DNA from: a virus
Lineage: Duplodnaviria > Caudoviricetes
Strand: one strand, 5' to 3'
Length of the DNA stretch: 64,000 nt
Virus record (IMG/VR): IMGVR_UViG_3300017763_003980
Numbering within the stretch: the stretch's first letter is position 1; each line of letters opens with the position of its first letter. The notes below the pieces were generated by a model, which had not been told where the DNA came from, did no database searches, and saw only the letters and a list, made by a program, of their open reading frames with translations. Both the position numbers and the translations under genes were made by a program. Below are positions 6,828 through 54,499 of this stretch, piece after piece.

Positions 6828-7976
6828 ATGAAAGTTCTAGTTCTTGGTGATGTAATAATTGACAAATATATTTACGGTACTTCTACTCGTATTAGTCCGG
6901 AAGCACCAGTGCCTATTGTTAACCTAGATAATATAAAAACTTCTTTAGGTGGTGCAGGACTTGTAGTTGAAAATCTCAAAAGTTTAGGTGTAGATGTTAC
7001 ACTTTTACAAACCAATCAACCAAGAAGTACTAAAACCAGAATTATTTCAGACGGGCATTATGTAACACGATTAGATGAAGACGAGAAAGCAGACAGCGAA
7101 GCTGTACTACGAAATGTCTTAAGCAGTGATTTTTCACAGTATGAATATGTTATATTAAGTGATTACAACAAAGGGGTGTTAACACATTCTAACAGGATTA
7201 TAGAGCATATAAACAGTCAAGGTTGTAAAGTTATTGTAGATCCTAAACGCCATCGTAAGTGTTATGAAGGTGCATGGTTAGTTAAACCTAATGCTAAAGA
7301 ATATAAAGATTTTGGTTTTGATAAACATAAAGGTAATATAATAACAACTAGTGCAAATGGTGCAGTATCAGCAAAGTTTGAAGATGAAACACATTTTATA
7401 ATTCCAGAACAAGTAGAAGTAAATGATGTTACCGGCGCAGGTGATTGTTTTCTTGCTGCCTTTGTATATGGACTAACACAGGATAAAACTATTAAGCAGT
7501 GTTTAGAGCTTGCTACTAAAGGTGCAACTGAAAGTGTTAAACATTTAGGCACGTATATATTATCAAAAACTGACTTAGAAGATACTATTGTGTTTACTAA
7601 TGGGTGTTTTGATATACTGCATATTGGCCATTTAAAACTGCTTAGACACGCTCGTAGCTTGGGAAATAGACTTATAGTAGCTATTAACAGTGACGCAAGT
7701 GTTAAGCGTTTAAAAGGAGAAACTAGACCCATTAATAGTCAAGAAACTAGAAAAGAAACACTAGAACAATTAAGCATAGTTGACGAAGTTATAATTTTTG
7801 ATGAGGATACTCCTTATGAAATAATTAAGGAAATTAAACCTAGTATAATTGTAAAAGGTGGAGATTATACTGTAGAAACAGTAGTTGGAAATGATTTAGC
7901 AGAAGTTGCAATATTTCCAAAAGTAGACGGGTATTCTACTACTCAAATTGTAAAGGATATAAAAGTTGGAAATTGA
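6828..7976 (+). CDS. hldE: Bifunctional heptose-7-phosphate kinase / heptose-1-phosphate adenylyltransferase
   Basis: PfkB kinase domain (RISPEAPVP, DVTGAGD) fused to a nucleotidyltransferase domain (FTNGCFDILHIGH, RPIN, KGGDY). Confidence 0.92.
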   Translation: MKVLVLGDVIIDKYIYGTSTRISPEAPVPIVNLDNIKTSLGGAGLVVENLKSLGVDVTLLQTNQPRSTKTRIISDGHYVTRLDEDEKADSEAVLRNVLSSDFSQYEYVILSDYNKGVLTHSNRIIEHINSQGCKVIVDPKRHRKCYEGAWLVKPNAKEYKDFGFDKHKGNIITTSANGAVSAKFEDETHFIIPEQVEVNDVTGAGDCFLAAFVYGLTQDKTIKQCLELATKGATESVKHLGTYILSKTDLEDTIVFTNGCFDILHIGHLKLLRHARSLGNRLIVAINSDASVKRLKGETRPINSQETRKETLEQLSIVDEVIIFDEDTPYEIIKEIKPSIIVKGGDYTVETVVGNDLAEVAIFPKVDGYSTTQIVKDIKVGN

Positions 7977-8598
7977 GATTAAGAATAATAAAGTTATAGT
8001 GCAAAACGCATTAAACGATGGAGAATTTTCAAATATAAGACATATTTTCTATGGCTATGATATACCTTGGTCGTACAACGATGGAATTGTAAACACTGAG
8101 GATATGAGTGATTTTCAATTTGTACATTTAGTATTTGATCACAGTAAAGCAGGTTACGGACCTATATGGGATAGTATAGTTCCTATTTTGGAAAAACTAA
8201 CACCGTCAAATGTAGTAAGGATTAAAGCTAATTTGCGTCCAAGAACAGGTGACATAGAAGCTAGTGGGTTTCATTGTGATGTTTGGATGCCCGGGGCTCT
8301 TACTGCTATATATTATCTTGATACAAACAACGGATATACAGAATTTAAAGATGGTGATAAGATTGCCAGTGTAGAAAATCAACTAGTAGTATTTCCTTCA
8401 AACTTACCACATCTAGGAACTAGTTGTACTGATCAAAATAGAAGAGTTATAATTAATTTTAATTTCTTTCCAACTACAGGATTATTAAATGCAACTGAGA
8501 TAAATCCTTCTGTAAATCCAATTACTGATCCTTTACTATCTGACACTGATAAAGAATATCACAGACATTGGGCTAAACCTATGAAGGGACTTCTATGA
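7966..8598 (+). CDS. 2OG-Fe(II) oxygenase-like protein
   Basis: HCD...TAIYYL...NQLVVFPSNLPH...R pattern (HxD..H..R). Confidence 0.7.
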   Translation: MEIEIKNNKVIVQNALNDGEFSNIRHIFYGYDIPWSYNDGIVNTEDMSDFQFVHLVFDHSKAGYGPIWDSIVPILEKLTPSNVVRIKANLRPRTGDIEASGFHCDVWMPGALTAIYYLDTNNGYTEFKDGDKIASVENQLVVFPSNLPHLGTSCTDQNRRVIINFNFFPTTGLLNATEINPSVNPITDPLLSDTDKEYHRHWAKPMKGLL

Positions 8599-9413
8599 AA
8601 ATATTAGTCACAGGATACAAAGGATTTATAGGGCAAAATGTATGCAATTATCTTTTAACTCAAGGACATGATGTTGAAGGATGGGAATATATGGATAATG
8701 CTGTACCTGATCCTAGTGCATATGATTGGGTAATACATCTTGGTGCAATTACTAGTACAACTTATACCGATGTAGATCGTATAATAGATCAAAATTTTGA
8801 ATACAGTATGAGATTGCTACAGGTTTGTGAAAACTATGGAACAAACTTTCAATATGCATCAAGTGCTAGTGTGTATGGTCCTACAACACATTTTACTGAA
8901 GATGGCCCTTTGCTACCACAAAGTCCTTATGCTTGGAGCAAGTATTTGTTTGATAGATTTGTAAAGCAACACAAGGATGAATTTACAGTACTTGTACAAG
9001 GATTTAGATATTTTAATGTATATGGTCCAGGAGAACACGATAAAGGTGATCAAGCTTCGCCTTATACTAAGTTTACAAAACAAGCACAAGAAGATGGCGA
9101 GATCAAAGTTTTTCAACTTAGTGAACATTACAAAAGAGATTTTGTATGCGTAAGAGATATTTGTAGAGTACACGAAAAAATGCTTAGTGTTGATTCTAGT
9201 GACATTTACAATGTTGGTACTGGTGTTGCAGAAAGTTTTGAAACTGTAGCACAAACTATTGCTAAAAAATACAATGCTACAATAAAATATATCCCAATTC
9301 CAGATAACATTAAAAATCAATATCAAAAATATACGTGTGCCAACATTGACAAATTAAATAGTGTTATAGATATGGAATGGACTAGTATAAAGGATTATAT
9401 TAATGAAAATTAG
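8595..9413 (+). CDS. hldD: ADP-L-glycero-D-manno-heptose 6-epimerase (extended SDR)
   Basis: TGYKGFIG NAD-binding motif, YASSASVYG, YAWSK, FRYFNVYGPGEHDKG, RDFVCV; located in the heptose cluster. Confidence 0.85.
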   Translation: MKILVTGYKGFIGQNVCNYLLTQGHDVEGWEYMDNAVPDPSAYDWVIHLGAITSTTYTDVDRIIDQNFEYSMRLLQVCENYGTNFQYASSASVYGPTTHFTEDGPLLPQSPYAWSKYLFDRFVKQHKDEFTVLVQGFRYFNVYGPGEHDKGDQASPYTKFTKQAQEDGEIKVFQLSEHYKRDFVCVRDICRVHEKMLSVDSSDIYNVGTGVAESFETVAQTIAKKYNATIKYIPIPDNIKNQYQKYTCANIDKLNSVIDMEWTSIKDYINEN

Positions 9414-10086
9414 AATTGACCAGTTCGATGTTATCTTACCATTTGGTTGTGCAATCTATCAATCTAAATTTACTAAAGATGAGCTAGATTTTTTAAAAAT
9501 GCTAGCTGAAGATTCTAGAGAAGGTAAAAACGCAAGTGAAAAACTAGTTGGTAATATACAAACACAAACAGAACCTGTAGTAAAAGATAAAAATACTCAA
9601 GAAAGATTTTCTGAAATATTACATCCTCATATAGTAAACTACTTAACTGTAGACCAAAAAAGACAAAAAGTAATGTATGAAAATTCTATTAGGCCACCAG
9701 ATTTTGTCGATGAAGAAGATATGCAAAATGTTAATTATGACTTAGGTACTGGACCCTGGTTTAACTACATGTGGGAAAATGAATTTAATCCGTTGCATGC
9801 ACATCACGGTTCAATAAGTGGAATAGCAATGATTCAAGTTCCTACAGAAATAAAAAATGAAAGATATAATACTGAAACTCCCAACTACGAAACACATGGA
9901 GATTTAGAATGGGTCGATGGAAATAATCATTATAAAGTTATACCCGAAGAAGGAAGTATTTTCTTATTTCCATCGCATTTAAAACATATAGTATATCCTT
10001 GGCACAGTCATGTAGAGAGAATTACATCTAGCTGGAATATATTTAACATAGAGTATCCTAAGAAAATTGAGATTGCATATGAGTAG
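9403..10086 (+). CDS. Putative 2OG-Fe(II) oxygenase (TIGR02466-like)
   Basis: NPLHAH...ISG...EGSIFLFPSHLKHIVYP...R motif. Confidence 0.65.
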   Translation: MKIRIDQFDVILPFGCAIYQSKFTKDELDFLKMLAEDSREGKNASEKLVGNIQTQTEPVVKDKNTQERFSEILHPHIVNYLTVDQKRQKVMYENSIRPPDFVDEEDMQNVNYDLGTGPWFNYMWENEFNPLHAHHGSISGIAMIQVPTEIKNERYNTETPNYETHGDLEWVDGNNHYKVIPEEGSIFLFPSHLKHIVYPWHSHVERITSSWNIFNIEYPKKIEIAYE

Positions 10087-10468
10087 ATTAGAAGGTCATG
10101 TAAAAAAGGGATGGGGTTACGAACTTATATGGGCTACAAATGACAAATACTGTGGTAAGATAATGGTGTTTGAAAAAGTAGGTGCAAAGTTCAGTATGCA
10201 TTTTCATCATGAAAAAGATGAAACATGGTTTGTAAATAGTGGCAAATTTAAAGTCAGATGGATAGACACTAGTAACGCAATGATGTTTGAAAAAGAATTA
10301 AATGAAGGAGATACCTGGCATAATCCTCCTTTACAACCTCATCAACTAGAAGCACTAGAGCCTATGAGCTCAGTAACAGAAGTAAGTACACCAGATTCAG
10401 TTGAAGATAATTATAGACTTATACCAGGAGATAGTCAATCTGCAGACACGGAAATTAGCAATGATTGA
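10079..10468 (+). CDS. Cupin-fold protein (sugar isomerase/epimerase-like); probable start 10079
   Basis: KGWGYELIW...SMHFHHEKDETW...HNPPLQPHQL cupin metal-binding motifs. Confidence 0.75.
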   Translation: MSRLEGHVKKGWGYELIWATNDKYCGKIMVFEKVGAKFSMHFHHEKDETWFVNSGKFKVRWIDTSNAMMFEKELNEGDTWHNPPLQPHQLEALEPMSSVTEVSTPDSVEDNYRLIPGDSQSADTEISND

Positions 10469-11081
10469 TATTGCATGGAGCAATGACATTGATAGGGGCC
10501 CTAATTGGATTGCTCCAAAGTGTGTAGTTGGATTGGATAGGGATGGTGTTATTAATAAAGATTTAGGTACTTATTGCTATAAGAGTAAAGATTTTGAACC
10601 TATTGAAGGTAGCATAGAAGCTATTTCTCAATTACGTCAACTAGGACATAAAGTTGTAATTATTACAAATCAAGGAGGCATAGAGAACGGATTATTTACT
10701 GAAGATGACGTAGATAATTTACATAATCATTTATTTGAACTACTTGGCGAAGCAGGATGTCAAAGTATAGATGGCATTTATTATAGTGCTAGTAGCCGAA
10801 AAAATGATATGTATGCAAAGCCTAATATAGGTATGTTCAAACGTTGCGAAAAAGAAGTTCCGCATGTAAAATTTAATCAAGGATATTATGTAGGTGATAA
10901 AATATCTGATTTAAAGGCAGCTATGAAAGTTGGTGCAAAGCCAATACTAGTACGCACAGGATACGGAAAAGAAACTGAAGAATTAATTAACAAACGATTT
11001 ACTTATAAGTCAATAAAAAAGCGTACCAAAGTATTTGATACGCTTTTAGATTTTGTTAATTATCTTACAGATCAAGCCTGA
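10461..11081 (+). CDS. gmhB: D,D-heptose 1,7-bisphosphate phosphatase (HAD family); probable start 10461
   Basis: LDRDGVIN, ITNQGGI, KPNIGM and VGDKISDLKAA HAD motifs. Confidence 0.85.
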   Translation: MIDIAWSNDIDRGPNWIAPKCVVGLDRDGVINKDLGTYCYKSKDFEPIEGSIEAISQLRQLGHKVVIITNQGGIENGLFTEDDVDNLHNHLFELLGEAGCQSIDGIYYSASSRKNDMYAKPNIGMFKRCEKEVPHVKFNQGYYVGDKISDLKAAMKVGAKPILVRTGYGKETEELINKRFTYKSIKKRTKVFDTLLDFVNYLTDQA

Positions 11082-47859: not shown

Positions 47860-49611
47860 TTATACCGTTTGGTCTGTTGTTGCTGGACTACCTATATCAT
47901 CACCAGTTACAGTTGATGGCGCATCACCTGCTCCGCCATCAGTAGTTGGAGCATCGCCTTCAGCTTCGTCTTCAATATTTCCAAGATCATCTCCCATACT
48001 GGCAGGACTAATACCAGCATCTCTCATTTGTGCTGAAGTATCATCGTTTGTAGGAATTATATCTTCGTCATTCTCTTCACGCCATAGTCTTTCATTTTCA
48101 GCAAGCTCTTCGTCAGTCATACCTAAGAAACGTTTGAGTGCAAATCTATTTGACATATACGGTATAGCAGCCATTTGTGAATAAGTTGGTACTCGAGCAT
48201 TATCAATCTCTGCTTGCCTATAACTTGCAAAATTTTGTGGTGGTTGAAATTTTAAATCAAACATTGAAGTATCTACATTGATACCTCTTTCTAACATATA
48301 GCGTTTAAATTCTTGATCAAATTCCTGTACAACTAAATTTTGTAGTCTTTCACAATATGTGTTGAATCTTAATTCTTGAATATATGCTGTTCCAACTCTT
48401 CCGTCATTGTATTGTGCAGCTGAATCGTCTGCACCAGTAGGCAGATAACTTGATGGAATACGCAGACCGCGAACTAACTTGTTAGTAAAATACCTAAGAT
48501 CATCAATTTCTCCTAAGTTTGTACCGCCTGGTAGTGTTTCAACTTTTGATCCACGTCCTTCAGCAGTTTGAGGGAAAAAGTAATCTTCGTTAATTGACAA
48601 AGGATTGTATGAACTGTCTATGACATTTGTTCCGCCCCCAGTCTGCGATGGTATACGTCTTTGATGTATTTCCGTCTTAACACGCTCTACAAATTGCATA
48701 GCAAGGTGCGATGGCATGTTACCCACATCAACATAGAAAACTCTTCTTTCTGGTGCTCTTTGTACACGATATATAATAATAGCATCTTCAAGTAATTCTT
48801 TTTGTTTGTATACTTTAAAAATTGTTTCAAGTAAAGAATTACCAAATGGATAATTATTGTCTAGTCCTTCTGACAAACTTAGATGTATTACATGTTTAGC
48901 GTCTACAGTTACTTCTCCATCATCAGTAGTAAATCTACTACCACTGTAACTTGACATAGGTTGTCCAACCATTCCTTTGGCGCCGCCGGTTGGTGTGTAC
49001 TGTTGATTGCCTCCACTTGTAATATTACCATTTGTATGATAAGGAGTAGTAGCTATTCCGTCTTTAAAATTAAAATTAATATTTTTAACTACATACTGTT
49101 CGGGTACTTTCCCTTCACTTTCGTTAACAATAATACGTGACACGTTTGCAGGATCAACATGAAACCAACGCTTAGTTTCTGGATCACGTACAAAAAACTG
49201 ATCTCCGTATTTGAAAACATTTCTTAATATTCGAAATATTTTTGTTTCAAAGTTTTGTAGTTTACACCATTGTTGTAGGTACTGACCAATAATGTTTACT
49301 TCATTATTAGTTGCGTTTTTATTTTTATAGTTTACTATAAAAGGTGAATTATTTGCTTTATTTTTTTGTGTGCAAAATTCTGCTAGAATATCTAATGCAG
49401 CATTTACTTCCGAATCTTGATCCATGGTGTTGTACTGACCATAGCGTTCAACTCGATTTGGTGAGCCAACGTATACATCAGGCAGATAGCTAGAATAATT
49501 AGACTTTGCTGGTCCTGCGAGATTTCCGCTACTTTTAGCAGTGAAAGGACTATAGCTTCCATTTGTATTATTACCTGTTGGAACAGGAGTAAAATATTTC
49601 TTCCAACTCAT
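47860..49611 (-). CDS. g20: Portal protein (T4 gp20-like)
   Basis: LLEDAIIIYRVQRAPERRVFYVDVGNMP, EDYFFP...GRGSKVETLPGG, L.IPSS.L. Confidence 0.95.
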   Translation of the reverse strand: MSWKKYFTPVPTGNNTNGSYSPFTAKSSGNLAGPAKSNYSSYLPDVYVGSPNRVERYGQYNTMDQDSEVNAALDILAEFCTQKNKANNSPFIVNYKNKNATNNEVNIIGQYLQQWCKLQNFETKIFRILRNVFKYGDQFFVRDPETKRWFHVDPANVSRIIVNESEGKVPEQYVVKNINFNFKDGIATTPYHTNGNITSGGNQQYTPTGGAKGMVGQPMSSYSGSRFTTDDGEVTVDAKHVIHLSLSEGLDNNYPFGNSLLETIFKVYKQKELLEDAIIIYRVQRAPERRVFYVDVGNMPSHLAMQFVERVKTEIHQRRIPSQTGGGTNVIDSSYNPLSINEDYFFPQTAEGRGSKVETLPGGTNLGEIDDLRYFTNKLVRGLRIPSSYLPTGADDSAAQYNDGRVGTAYIQELRFNTYCERLQNLVVQEFDQEFKRYMLERGINVDTSMFDLKFQPPQNFASYRQAEIDNARVPTYSQMAAIPYMSNRFALKRFLGMTDEELAENERLWREENDEDIIPTNDDTSAQMRDAGISPASMGDDLGNIEDEAEGDAPTTDGGAGDAPSTVTGDDIGSPATTDQTV

Positions 49612-52600
49612 TTAGTCTCTTCCCATCAACACTTGCGTAGACACATCGCTACTTCTATTTGCAGCTTTTTTAATATTTGGCGATTGTTCTTGTAATTCTT
49701 CCAATATGAGCGTCATTGTAGTATTTAGTGTGTTTAGCTCTGTTGCACTCATGTTCTGATTCATTGATTGAGTGCTAAGATATGATCCTGCTGCTGATTG
49801 TGATGTTACTTGCTGTGGTTTAGATCTTGCGCCTGCTCCTTTTACTGTTGTGGTTTGATCTTTAGCTGCTTCATTAATTGCTGTAAGTTGTTCAGCTACA
49901 GAACTAAGTGCATCTGCATAGCTTTGAACTTTAACAGCATCCATTCCGTCTTGTATAGTATTCAGTGCAGATTTTAAATTTGGTATGTCTATTATGCTGC
50001 TTACTGCGGCTCTTGCACTTTCTAAAGTGTTAGCGGATTCTACACCAGATTGAATCTCGCTTGATGATATAGTTTCATCCGGAGTTGGAGCACTATCGCT
50101 ACTACCTATCGATTTGCCTTTGCCGCCTAACCAAGTTGGTAAAAAGTCTCTGAAGTTTGGCATTGTAAAATCAAATGTAAAGAATCCTGTTATAGCGTCC
50201 CACACTTTTGTAAATTGAGATTTAATACTATATTTTGACCAGTCAATGTCACTAAAAGACGTGCCAAGTTTAGATCCTACATCTGATAGGAATGTTTTTG
50301 CAGAAGTATATTTGTCTACAATAGTATTATCAAATGCAGTTTTAATTGATGTTCCTATACCTTTAGCTTTAGTTATTGCATCATTAAAAGCTGAAGTAAT
50401 AGTACCATCATCCCAAGCAGTTTTAATTGATGTTCCTATACCTTTAACTTTAGTTGCTGCATCATTAAAGGCTGAACCAATAGTACTATCGTCCCAAGCA
50501 GTTTTAATTGCTGATCCTACAGCTATAGCTTTTTCTCTTGCAGTATTAAAGGCTGAAGTAATAGTACCATCGTCCCAAGCAGTCTTTATACTTCCTGCTA
50601 CACCTGAAACATAATTTTTAGCAGTAGTAAATTTGGTTGATATACCTTCTTTAGCATCATCCCAAGTGTTAGCAATAGATGTTCCTATAAGTGCAACATT
50701 ATTTTTTGCTCTTGTAAAACCATCTGATATACCTTGTTTAGTATCATCCCAGGTGTTAGAAATAGATGTGCCTATACCTTTTATACTATCTATAGCACTG
50801 TTATATTTTTCAACTACGGCAGCTTTTCCATCGGTCCACATGTTGCCGATACTTGTTCCCCAACCTTTTATTGCTTCTATTGCAGGATCAAATGCTCCTG
50901 AAAAATATGCCGCGGTTCCCATACCTATTAAAGCTGTACCAAGTGCGGCTGCTATTCCAACCGGTCCTGTTAAAGGAAGCAAAAACAATGCGGCTAAACC
51001 TGCGGCACCCAGTGCGCCTCCTATTGCAATACTTCCCCAATCGATACTACCAATTAACGAACTGATCGCAGCACCTATCGCTTCTCCTAGTATTTTACCA
51101 AGTCCTGCAGAATCTCCTTCACCACCAAATAAACCTGCAACGTCTTTATCTAACACTCTGTCAGTGCCGTCTTTATTTTTTCCTATAACTTGGTCTTTTT
51201 TACCGCCAAAGATTGCTGTCTTAAGATCATATGTTGCTATATCTGATATAAACTGTTCTACAGCTTTCATAAGTACAGTTAAACCATCTGCTAATTTTTT
51301 CATAGCACTTGAAATTGTTTCTTTACCTTCTTCACTAGTAAAAAATTCAGTTAATTTACTAAATCCGGCTGCCAGTATTTCCATAGGTCCGCCTTCAGCG
51401 AAGAATATTTGTGCAATAGTAGATCTTAAATCTATAATGTCCTGTTGAAATCCTTTTAGTGCTTCGTCTTTTTGTTTTTCTAGAGCAATTCTTGCTTCAG
51501 CATTTTTTATTGCTACATCCATGTCTTTAGCAGAAAAAGTAGCAAGTTCTGTGCTAGCTCTCAACGCCGCACCAAAAGATGTGTTACCATCTACTAGTTG
51601 CTGGAATGCAGCTTCTGACATGCCGCCAGCTTTTGCTTCGACTTCTTTTTTGACTTTTTCAAAAAATTCTAGCTGGGCTCCAACGTCCATATTTTTTAGA
51701 TTTTTTGCATCATTCCTAAAAGTATCACTCATTGCCATAAGACCTTCAGAAACACTTCCTGGTTTTGGTACGCCATCTACCATATCAGTAACAGCTTCTG
51801 ACATTGCAGGACCTAAACTACTACTCACTGTCATAGCAGCTCTAAAGTTTTTCTGCTGGTCTTTCGTCATTTTAGAAATAGCTTGAGCATTTCTAGCATC
51901 TTCCATTTTTGCTGTAAGCTCAGCTTGTATTGCTTTTCTTTGCTTGCCAGTTACAGCTGATAACATCATTAGTTCTTCGCCATACGCAGCCATGTCTTCT
52001 TGTGATATTTTATTATTTTTTCTGTCAATACCATACTGTCTGTCTTGATATTCTGTGTAGTCTAGCATTAGCTCATTAATATCAGATACAGTATATCCTA
52101 AGTTCATTAATTCTTTGCCTGGACCTTTTCTAAAATCTCTAGACATATTACCAAATGCTATTCCAGCAGTTGCAGTTGTCCCTCCAAACAATCTCATACG
52201 ATCAGCGTTCTCAGTAATAACACCTGTAAACATATCCAAAGGCATTGCTGCATTTGCAGCAGCCAGTCTTAGGCCGTTGAGTCCAACGCCAAATGTTGCA
52301 CCTGACTCACTAAGTGATCTAAATGCGGCAAGATTAGTATCAAGAATTCCAGCAAATGATCCAAGTATTCCGCCTACAAACGGAACAGTTTTTGCAAAAC
52401 TTTCTAAACTGTCTTCTGATCCAAATAAAGCTTTCGAAAAATTAGTAACACTGCCAAGTAGTTGTCCAGATACAGCGCCGCCGAATGACAATACTGATTT
52501 AGTTGCTCCGTTAAGTGCTTTACGGAATCTACCGGTTTCATCTTTAGATTTTTTTTCTTCTTTGTTTTTTTCTTTTTGCTGATAAGTTGATGCTTGAATT

Positions 52601-52764
52601 ATTTTATAATTCTCTTGTAATATTGCTTGCGCCTTTTTAGGATCCATGCCTCCGCCCTGAGCTTTTGCCATAGACTCCATAGCCGCGGTCAATCTAACTA
52701 GAGTAACTTCACTTGCTACTCCGTTGGCGCCGCCTACATTACCAATTTCTACTTCTTCAGCCAA
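49612..52764 (-). CDS. Tail tape measure protein (TTG start)
   Basis: 1050 aa, helical and Ala/Gly-rich, with hydrophobic Gly/Ala segments and Trp-anchored repeats. Confidence 0.75.
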   Translation of the reverse strand: MAEEVEIGNVGGANGVASEVTLVRLTAAMESMAKAQGGGMDPKKAQAILQENYKIIQASTYQQKEKNKEEKKSKDETGRFRKALNGATKSVLSFGGAVSGQLLGSVTNFSKALFGSEDSLESFAKTVPFVGGILGSFAGILDTNLAAFRSLSESGATFGVGLNGLRLAAANAAMPLDMFTGVITENADRMRLFGGTTATAGIAFGNMSRDFRKGPGKELMNLGYTVSDINELMLDYTEYQDRQYGIDRKNNKISQEDMAAYGEELMMLSAVTGKQRKAIQAELTAKMEDARNAQAISKMTKDQQKNFRAAMTVSSSLGPAMSEAVTDMVDGVPKPGSVSEGLMAMSDTFRNDAKNLKNMDVGAQLEFFEKVKKEVEAKAGGMSEAAFQQLVDGNTSFGAALRASTELATFSAKDMDVAIKNAEARIALEKQKDEALKGFQQDIIDLRSTIAQIFFAEGGPMEILAAGFSKLTEFFTSEEGKETISSAMKKLADGLTVLMKAVEQFISDIATYDLKTAIFGGKKDQVIGKNKDGTDRVLDKDVAGLFGGEGDSAGLGKILGEAIGAAISSLIGSIDWGSIAIGGALGAAGLAALFLLPLTGPVGIAAALGTALIGMGTAAYFSGAFDPAIEAIKGWGTSIGNMWTDGKAAVVEKYNSAIDSIKGIGTSISNTWDDTKQGISDGFTRAKNNVALIGTSIANTWDDAKEGISTKFTTAKNYVSGVAGSIKTAWDDGTITSAFNTAREKAIAVGSAIKTAWDDSTIGSAFNDAATKVKGIGTSIKTAWDDGTITSAFNDAITKAKGIGTSIKTAFDNTIVDKYTSAKTFLSDVGSKLGTSFSDIDWSKYSIKSQFTKVWDAITGFFTFDFTMPNFRDFLPTWLGGKGKSIGSSDSAPTPDETISSSEIQSGVESANTLESARAAVSSIIDIPNLKSALNTIQDGMDAVKVQSYADALSSVAEQLTAINEAAKDQTTTVKGAGARSKPQQVTSQSAAGSYLSTQSMNQNMSATELNTLNTTMTLILEELQEQSPNIKKAANRSSDVSTQVLMGRD
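50330..50840 (-). repeat. Tape measure internal repeats: three 87-bp then three 81-bp units
   Basis: Anchor TCCCAAG-like at 50411, 50492, 50573, 50660 and 50747; W/F spacing is 29,29,29,27,27,27 aa. Confidence 0.85.
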
Positions 52765-52791: not shown

Positions 52792-52831
52792 TATAAATAA
52801 ATTAGATACATACTTATATTATGTATTTATA
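52792..52831. promoter_or_regulatory. Face-to-face late promoters TATAAATA (+ 52792-52799; - 52824-52831)
   Basis: Exact motifs in the 80-bp gap between the divergent tape measure and gp26-like genes. Confidence 0.7.
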
Positions 52832-52843
52832 CGGAGAAAGATC

Positions 52844-53743
52844 ATGGCAGAATTTAACCCCTTAACTGCTGACGCTAATTTAAAATCATTAGCCGATACA
52901 GGAAAAAATCCTTTAGAACAATACTTTAGACAGCCTAAAGTATATATAACCCTTCCTAGTAAAGGAAAATACTATGCAGATGGTGCATTAGATATTCCAG
53001 AAACTGGTGAATTTCCGGTGTTTGCAATGACAGCAAAGGATGAACTTACTATGAAAACACCTGATGCTTTATTGAATGGCGCAGCAACAGTTAGTGTTAT
53101 TAAAAGTTGTGTTCCTAATATTGTTGACCCTTGGGAATTACCTAGTATCGATCTTGATGCAATATTAATTGGTATTAGAATTGCTACATACGGCGAAATG
53201 CTTGATATTGATACAAAAGTTCCTGTAACAGGTGAAGATAAAACATTCCAAGTTGATCTAAGAAAAATGCTTAATAAATTAGTTACTGTTGACTACGAAG
53301 ATGAAATAAGTGTAGGTGACTTTACAGTTACGTTAAGACCGCTAACTTATAAAAAGTTTACAGAAACTAGTTTAAAAACATTTGAAGAACAAAGAATTTT
53401 TAATACAGTTAATGACGATGAACTGCCAGACTCGGATAAATTAGCTAGATTTGCAGAAAGTTTTCAAAAACTAACTGATATTACAGTTGCTATGATGGCA
53501 AATGGTATTGCAAAGATATCAATCGGTGACACTGAAGTTACTAATCCAGATCATATCTCAGAATTTATCGACAATGTTGATAAAAATGTTTATCAAGAAA
53601 TCCTTGATCATCTTGATAACCAAAGAAAAAAGTTTGTTATTGAACCAATGAAAGTAACTTCTACTCCAGAAGATATAAAAAATGGTGCTCCAGAAACATT
53701 TGAAGTTCCAATTACATTTGATCAATCAAATTTTTTCGCATAA
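52844..53743 (+). CDS. Baseplate hub assembly / tail chaperone protein (T4 gp26-like)
   Basis: RQPKVYITLPSKG, MTAKDELTMKTPDALLNG, DLDAILIGIRIATYGE, PITFDQSNFF. Confidence 0.7.
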   Translation: MAEFNPLTADANLKSLADTGKNPLEQYFRQPKVYITLPSKGKYYADGALDIPETGEFPVFAMTAKDELTMKTPDALLNGAATVSVIKSCVPNIVDPWELPSIDLDAILIGIRIATYGEMLDIDTKVPVTGEDKTFQVDLRKMLNKLVTVDYEDEISVGDFTVTLRPLTYKKFTETSLKTFEEQRIFNTVNDDELPDSDKLARFAESFQKLTDITVAMMANGIAKISIGDTEVTNPDHISEFIDNVDKNVYQEILDHLDNQRKKFVIEPMKVTSTPEDIKNGAPETFEVPITFDQSNFFA

Positions 53744-53774
53744 GGATCTTATCTTGGGGCGAGGCTGAGATCCT
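53728..53774 (+). promoter_or_regulatory. Predicted programmed -1 ribosomal frameshift signal
   Basis: Overlapping slippery heptamers A_AAT_TTT and T_TTT_TTC in the 0 frame, followed by the hairpin AGGATCTTA-TCTTG-ggg-CGAGG-c-TGAGATCCT (53743-53774). Confidence 0.7.
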
Positions 53775-53790
53775 AGAAGAAGTCTCCAAA

Positions 53791-53967
53791 ATGCAAAATT
53801 TACAAAAAGAGCTCAAATCCGAAATACTTAAACTGTGTTGGTATATGCGTGGCGGAGTGTCTGTTAATGAAGGCTTTAATCTCTCATACGAAGAAAGATC
53901 GTTAATCACAGATATTATTCAAGATAATATGGAAACTACTAAGAAAAGTGGATTGCCTTTCTTTTAA
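53791..53967 (+). CDS. gp51-like small ORF (58 aa from ATG), absent from the track; probably the C-terminal part of a frameshift fusion
   Basis: MQNLQKELKSEILKLCWYMRGGVS...EERSLI...KKSGLPFF; the -1 frame is open from 53722; only a weak RBS. Confidence 0.7.
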   Translation: MQNLQKELKSEILKLCWYMRGGVSVNEGFNLSYEERSLITDIIQDNMETTKKSGLPFF

Positions 53968-54478
53968 CATTAGCCATATCAATATATTTGTATTGTTCTG
54001 ATGTCTGTTGAAATGATTGTTCAGCTCTCCAATTTTTACTAGGCCAAGGACAAGATAAATTCTCTTCGATATAACAGTTGTATTTAGAAATCATATTGTT
54101 ATACCCTAATGGTCTCGCTACAATACAATACTGTTCATGAAACCCACAATATATTATGTTATCTAATTTTTTTTCTTTGATAAAGTTTTCTAATATAGTA
54201 AGTCCGTTTTGATTCGAATGCTTTAGCCAGAGATAATTTCTCATAAAATCAGGACTATCTTTTATGTCGTTAGTTATAACTATCTTATTTTTCATATGGC
54301 TAGCATATTCAAATATTTTTTTCATACACTCATTATTCCACTGATTAAGAGATAGTCCAAGATATTCTTTACTGCATTCCTTATCCGCTGATTCTTGATC
54401 TTTCACAGGATCCATAATAATCCACAAAGATTTATCAGATATTTCAGTAAGTTGTTTATGTGAATAATTCATTTTCAT
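53939..54478 (-). CDS. Hypothetical protein, possibly isochorismatase-like fold
   Basis: LWIIMD...IIYCGFHEQYCIV.R..G pattern; TAAATA-N5-ATG. Confidence 0.5.
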   Translation of the reverse strand: MKMNYSHKQLTEISDKSLWIIMDPVKDQESADKECSKEYLGLSLNQWNNECMKKIFEYASHMKNKIVITNDIKDSPDFMRNYLWLKHSNQNGLTILENFIKEKKLDNIIYCGFHEQYCIVARPLGYNNMISKYNCYIEENLSCPWPSKNWRAEQSFQQTSEQYKYIDMANVKRKAIHFS

Positions 54479-54499
54479 ATTACTATTTAAGCTTTACTT

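Follow-up and report, generated by a model that had tools for sequence, protein, structure and literature searches.

The baseplate hub of phage T4 is assembled with the help of two chaperones, gp26 and gp51, of which gp51 is required and is absent from the viral particle (Leiman et al. 2010, PMC3004832). T4 codes them in two separate, divergently transcribed genes, while the virus studied here probably has one gene of the family. The question raised by this locus is how a single gene could supply both proteins. The initial annotation had proposed a programmed -1 frameshift that fuses its gp26-like product to an unannotated gp51-like reading frame. The window, meaning the whole 64,000-nucleotide stretch of IMG/VR record IMGVR_UViG_3300017763_003980 (Caudoviricetes), carries T4-type portal, prohead protease, major capsid, gp46/47-like nuclease and late sigma genes. 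No tail-tube gene was found among the window ORFs scanned. Fourteen seawater or viral metagenome runs, which belong to about ten studies, contain the complete stretch.

The gene lies at positions 52844-53743 of the plus strand and its short product has 299 amino acids. A GGAG Shine-Dalgarno sequence (52833-52836, plus strand) precedes its ATG at 52844 by 7 nt, and a T4-type late promoter motif, TATAAATA, is read upstream at 52792-52799 of the same strand, where it may drive late transcription of the gene. A gp55-like late sigma gene is present in the same window (58504-59358).

The 299-amino acid protein has a T4 gp26/gp51-family body. Residues 65-256 match Pfam family PF12322 (T4_baseplate) with 51.2 bits, the curated cut-off being 24.5 bits, and the protein matches phrog_150 (baseplate hub) in PHROGs with an E-value of 4e-15. 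Its closest cultured relatives, at ~30% identity, are found in the giant phages Atu_ph07, Phosso, 121Q/PBECO4-type, PA5oct and XbC2. The body gave a fold model of pLDDT 82 that retrieved only generic helical matches with Foldseek against the PDB and VIA-wide, and no solved structure matching by sequence was found. The gene had no match to a TAC family in Pfam, NCBIfam or PHROGs, nor any match by sequence or fold to a G/GT-type chaperone, the PDB fold matches being generic helices. The zinc ribbon formed by two CxxC-type cysteine pairs in T4 gp26 and gp51, kept also in Atu_ph07, Phosso and the in-frame long paralogues described below, is absent from the window protein, which has a single cysteine (C89). 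All four zinc-ribbon cysteines are lost from the PF12322 body in the marine clade to which the window gene belongs. This absence is a clade-specific loss and no criterion of the Pfam family.

Among complete genomes, T4 has two PF12322 copies while 121Q, PA5oct, Atu_ph07 and Phosso have one each. In T4 gp26 (208 aa) the family covers residues 1-206, and in T4 gp51 (249 aa) it covers residues 1-201 and is followed by a tail of ~48 amino acids. The gp51-type long form is defined as a PF12322 body plus a C-terminal tail, listed as PF28602 in precomputed tables. T4 gp26 ends in EFFELL where the window short form ends in SNFFA, whereas T4 gp51 is prolonged by a tail to which the -1 extension of the window gene aligns, the window tail being ~25 residues longer. 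The end of T4 gene 26 is coded TTC TTT, has no slippery run and is followed by gene 25, unlike the window gene with its T_TTT_TTC. T4 gene 26 is also annotated with 26', an in-frame internal start giving the C-terminal 95 amino acids of gp26, a third way for the PF12322 family to obtain two products from one locus.

The 3' end of the window gene reads TCA AAT TTT TTC GCA TAA, with TTC at 53735-53737 and the 0-frame stop TAA at 53741-53743. It contains two overlapping slippery heptamers of the X_XXY_YYZ type on the plus strand, A_AAU_UUU (53728-53734) and U_UUU_UUC (53731-53737). A 5-nt spacer (53738-53742) separates the latter from a hairpin at 53743-53774. The -1 frame is closed by a TGA at 53719-53721, opens at 53722 and runs to a stop at 53965-53967. 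A slip on either heptamer yields an identical product of 298 + 76 = 374 amino acids, in which DQSNFF is joined to RIRILSW and the chain ends in GLPFF. Rereading of the sequence returned the heptamers, the 53722-53967 frame, the coordinates and the 374-amino acid product as they had been annotated. The extension itself (53737-53967, plus strand; 76 codons and a stop) is predicted to be helical. Its final 29 nt are overlapped by a convergent ORF of 179 amino acids without family at 53939-54478 on the minus strand.

Conservation of the slippery site was followed in 83 loci, namely those of the window, Atu_ph07 and Phosso together with 80 from IMG/VR (51-94% protein identity). The sequence ATTTTTTC is found at the gene end in 83/83 loci, and in every one of them the -1 frame is open across it, so that the heptamer and the open overlap put forward by the initial annotation are both conserved. 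The phages 121Q, PA5oct and XbC2 share TTTTTTC together with a -1 frame of ~70 codons. The length of the open -1 frame is nearly constant, ~65-78 codons in related loci, and its stop falls 215-227 nt past the 0-frame stop in the 83 sequences. Codon statistics reveal the same constraint. The final phenylalanine is coded by TTC in all of the 61 distinct marine loci, while at nine other conserved phenylalanine columns TTC is used in only 1-12 of the 61. The asparagine that precedes the final phenylalanine run is AAT in 61/61 marine loci, other asparagine columns being mixed. When relatives are read directly, the residue before the T run varies (N, H or S) and the third base of its codon is always T. 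The A_AAT_TTT heptamer is lost outside the marine clade, where CAT or AGT precede the run, and therefore U_UUU_UUC is the conserved site. This heptamer is not known to be among the most efficient ones in bacteria.

The frame under purifying selection changes at this point. Column entropy peaks at the third codon position of frame 0 upstream of the heptamer, is zero at offsets -1 to +8, and from offset +9 has its third-position peaks in frame -1, a switch that starts before the 0-frame stop. The codon after TTC varies (GCA, GGA, GAA, GTA, GCG and others), which changes the frame-0 residue (A, G, E or V) but in frame -1 always leaves CGN, arginine. The -1 peptide shows conservation from the outset, with FFR[IVLM][RK]IL at its start, through a CWYMRGG motif to the terminal TTKKSGLPFF. 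Its conservation extends over 78 columns with variation of the synonymous type.

These features bear on the possibility that a small independent gene occupies the downstream frame, started at the ATG at 53791-53793 (plus strand), which gene callers would pick for a 58-amino acid ORF, or by termination-reinitiation at a codon overlapping the stop. GenBank annotators do call a small ORF at this place in 121Q, XbC2, Phosso and Atu_ph07, and overlaps of the ATGA or TAATG type in Atu_ph07, Phosso, 121Q and five marine loci make coupling possible there. Against this, the stop-overlapping codon is ATA, GTA or CTA in the window and most loci, and no GGAG is found 5' of 53791. In relatives the position of this ATG codes for M, Y, L, F or I. 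Candidate starts are scattered across codons 4-28, and 11/61 loci have no ATG, GTG or TTG within the first 30 codons. PA5oct has the frame without a callable start and the ORF is unannotated in that genome. Both peptide conservation and -1 codon periodicity begin at the arginine codon upstream of the stop. As no start is conserved and the frame switches before the stop, independent initiation or reinitiation cannot be the conserved expression route for the -1 frame. The natural in-frame fusions described below (17 clusters) also stand against a separate gene, which is an improbable reading of the locus.

The initial annotation had placed a bulged hairpin behind the slippery site. RNAfold confirmed this putative stimulatory element at 53743-53774 of the plus strand, with 14 base pairs and one bulge, starting 5 nt past U_UUU_UUC. 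Its predicted free energy is -14.7 kcal/mol and its gain over shuffled sequences is modest (z -2.0; 11 of 200 shuffles fold equally well). Pairing of the outer 11-bp helix, 53743-53753 with 53764-53774, was counted on an ungapped alignment of 63 sequences (57 distinct), where 84% of cells are paired versus 31-48% with slid partners. Changes on both sides are seen in 7 of the 11 helix pairs, and pair 29-42 occurs as GC (16), UA (11) and CG (8). Both arms of the hairpin also encode conserved residues. RNAalifold did not return the hairpin unaided. Outside the marine clade, PA5oct forms a hairpin of its own at 6 nt from the slip site, the nearest stable hairpin is 14-18 nt away in 121Q, Atu_ph07 and Phosso, and none stands out near the site in XbC2. 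The alignment thus supports by covariation a conserved hairpin downstream of the slip site, more weakly outside the marine clade.

A small island of nucleotide conservation is seen at 53702-53783, where RNA-library contigs of diverged relatives match only the slip site and hairpin and differ on both sides.

The same fusion could in principle be made by RNA polymerase slipping on the T6 run, with one extra U in some transcripts, and a homopolymeric run is indeed present at the junction. Six T's are, however, short for productive transcriptional slippage. The constraint observed fits X_XXY_YYZ, with the preceding codon retaining a T regardless of the amino acid it encodes, and a hairpin 5 nt downstream suits ribosomal shifting. 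Contigs from two marine RNA libraries bridge 53450-53895 without difference and 53652-53873 with one difference. They have no indel across the site, weak evidence that is compatible with a single transcript carrying the genomic T6; contigs of this kind hide minor variants and rare slippage and do not prove transcription. Polymerase slippage is somewhat less probable still than a separate gene.

The -1 peptide was found elsewhere in forms that do not depend on a slip. Among 1.84 billion representatives, a profile of the peptide retrieved 414 matches, mostly short ORFs called from assorted internal starts. In 17 clusters, of 319-351 amino acids, the peptide lies in frame at the carboxyl terminus of a PF12322 body. 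A word-index search for longer proteins with the extension had found none, and these clusters came from the later exhaustive profile search. The junction in the fusions, LD[FW]S followed by F-R-x-K/R-L/I-I/L, is the one predicted for the slip product. A 383-amino acid database protein considered as a further in-frame fusion was rejected, as it is an assembly artefact repeating the gene's own C-terminal ~85 residues.

In all five fusion-lineage contigs examined, a tailless gene with the same AGAP-type C-terminal motif lies immediately upstream of the long gene. PF12322 is on record for three of these upstream genes; one has no recorded Pfam family, and the remaining one, on a short contig, is a fragment of 30 residues. 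Their products end in NFFTDNK, DFFAK, SFFND, NFLPETK (followed by further residues) and SFMPSGL. At the sequence level, FF is not kept where a slip is unneeded and decays to FL or FM in two of the five short paralogues. These tandem paralogues of uncultured phages share body and tail with the window gene and have the junction as the slip predicts. They differ from it in using no frameshift and in a long paralogue that keeps the zinc ribbon. The natural in-frame long form gave a model of pLDDT 89 in which the tail has three to four helices, and this model matches "baseplate hub assembly" models in BFVD.

With these relatives in hand, the notion that the -1 frame is untranslated and owes its conservation solely to an RNA or DNA element becomes highly improbable. 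Such an element could not readily be reconciled with a peptide conserved over 78 columns with synonymous-type variation, with the 414 database relatives retrieved by the peptide profile, or with a peptide found in frame in the paralogue lineage and homologous to the gp51 tail.

The relation to gp51 was examined by profile comparison. The fused family aligns end to end with a 27-member gp51 alignment (HHalign probability 70%, E 4e-5). A diverse profile of the extension alone matches the gp51 tail with a score of 22.1 (P 4.9e-4, HHalign probability 32%), against 9.9 +/- 2.2 and a maximum of 19.1 in 200 column shuffles. The gp51 signal emerged only with the diverse extension set and the fused family; in HHalign the marine-only extension aligned instead to other weak regions of full-length gp51. 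No match was found between the extension and T4 gp26. The label "gp51-like" given to the frame by the initial annotation is thus borne out by a match to a tail that is present in T4 gp51 and absent from gp26. The profiles show that the extension is homologous to the C-terminal tail of gp51, with moderate support when the tail is taken alone.

The reading favoured by the sequence comparisons, with a probability of roughly 85%, is a -1 frameshift at the 52844-53743 gene whose short product is the equivalent of T4 gp26 and whose long product is the equivalent of gp51. The gene would be the sole gp26/gp51-family hub or tail assembly chaperone of a marine giant T4-related phage and would be expressed late. 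Most ribosomes would end at the TAA at 53741 and release the 299-amino acid short form. A minority would pause at the hairpin (53743-53774) with tRNA-Phe on UUU in the P site and on UUC in the A site; both tRNAs would re-pair one base back and translation would continue in the -1 frame from the CGC at 53737. The slip would yield the 374-amino acid long form with its 76-amino acid helical tail. Short and long forms would correspond to T4 gp26 and gp51, respectively, both hub assembly chaperones. With one gene giving short and long forms of this kind, the slip would fix the short:long ratio in the manner of lambda G/GT. We infer that the slip occurs and that the partner of the tail may be a tape measure, tube or hub protein. 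The feature is mechanistically ordinary, a canonical -1 PRF.

The initial annotation had also regarded this arrangement as the equivalent of the G/GT pair of phage lambda; a conserved -1 frameshift in tail assembly chaperone genes is reported (Xu, Hendrix & Duda 2004). The finding of one PF12322 gene with a slip site where T4 has two genes, together with the tandem short/long lineage, supports this equivalence. Like G/GT, the window gene would make a short and a C-terminally extended product by a -1 slip at an X_XXY_YYZ heptamer near the end of the short frame; in both systems the genes code for assembly chaperones and adjoin the tape measure gene, a putative one in the window. The G/GT gene lies upstream of the tape measure gene and is co-directional with it, while the window gene is divergent from its putative counterpart; in addition the target of the PF12322 family in T4 is the baseplate hub, unlike that of G/GT. 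With no match to G/GT-type chaperones by sequence or fold, the likeness is best taken as one of logic.

The neighbour in question is a gene of the minus strand (49612-52764) coding for a putative tape-measure-like protein of 1050 amino acids and lying directly upstream of the portal gene (47860-49611). The protein has a long Gly/Ala-rich hydrophobic segment, its language-model neighbours include TMP clusters, and it matches weakly a siphophage TMP (E 1e-4). It has no family in Pfam, PHROGs or NCBIfam, including no match to T4_Tape_measure (PF25671), and no BLAST similarity to its positional counterpart in PA5oct. The order of this gene and the portal gene is common to 121Q, PA5oct, XbC2 and Phosso, where the counterpart has 734-832 amino acids; the 121Q and PA5oct annotations call it a virion structural protein. 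A tape measure function is therefore plausible for the 49612-52764 product. When the chaperone gene was described as standing beside the tape measure gene, adjacency was correct, while the identity of the neighbour is only plausible and its transcription divergent. After the Gly/Ala-rich segment the protein has about six tandem repeats of ~24 amino acids that contain tryptophan, with the motif IKGIGTSIKTAWDDGTITSAFNDA. The ORF is listed from a TTG codon.

Related ideas have appeared for T4-like phages in general. Two papers cite Vladimirov, Gautam & Davidson (Virology 2022), and it is through them that this work is quoted here. [quoted passage not shown] As cited there, the idea of a short and a long form related by frameshifting was probably already published by Vladimirov et al. 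2022. A full-text literature search for frameshifting in baseplate-hub or gp26/gp51 genes returned nothing direct. The genes concerned in the earlier work are reportedly 26 and 51. The frameshift is not annotated in GenBank records.

With the frameshift reading, the "hypothetical" ORF of 40-76 amino acids that follows the baseplate-hub gene of giant T4-related phages would be the tail of a frameshift product. The long protein would have been missed in the records of 121Q, PA5oct, XbC2, Atu_ph07 and Phosso and in thousands of metagenomic contigs. The poorly understood gp26/gp51 pair would gain an evolutionary rationale, with one chaperone supplied in two doses, tailed and tailless. For the role of the gp51 tail, the existence of one-gene, tandem-gene and split-gene variants would offer a natural test system.

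It is conceivable, but on balance doubtful, that the one-gene frameshift state is ancestral to the whole T4 superfamily and that a duplication of this gene gave rise to genes 26 and 51. If so, the PF12322 pair would embody the lambda G/GT principle independently, in an unrelated fold and with a helical tail recruiting hub, tape-measure or tube proteins, and would represent a second origin of frameshift-dosed tail chaperones.

Two other segments of the window can be mentioned. A gene for a SegE-type GIY-YIG homing endonuclease (54975-55427, minus strand) separates the chaperone locus from the gp46-like nuclease gene and is followed by an ORF-poor stretch at 54479-54974. Adjoining the sheath gene is a cluster of sugar and auxiliary genes (6828-11081, plus strand) with a heptose kinase/adenylyltransferase domain, a nucleotide-sugar epimerase, 2OG-Fe(II) oxygenases, a cysteine-dioxygenase-like gene and a phosphoheptose isomerase.
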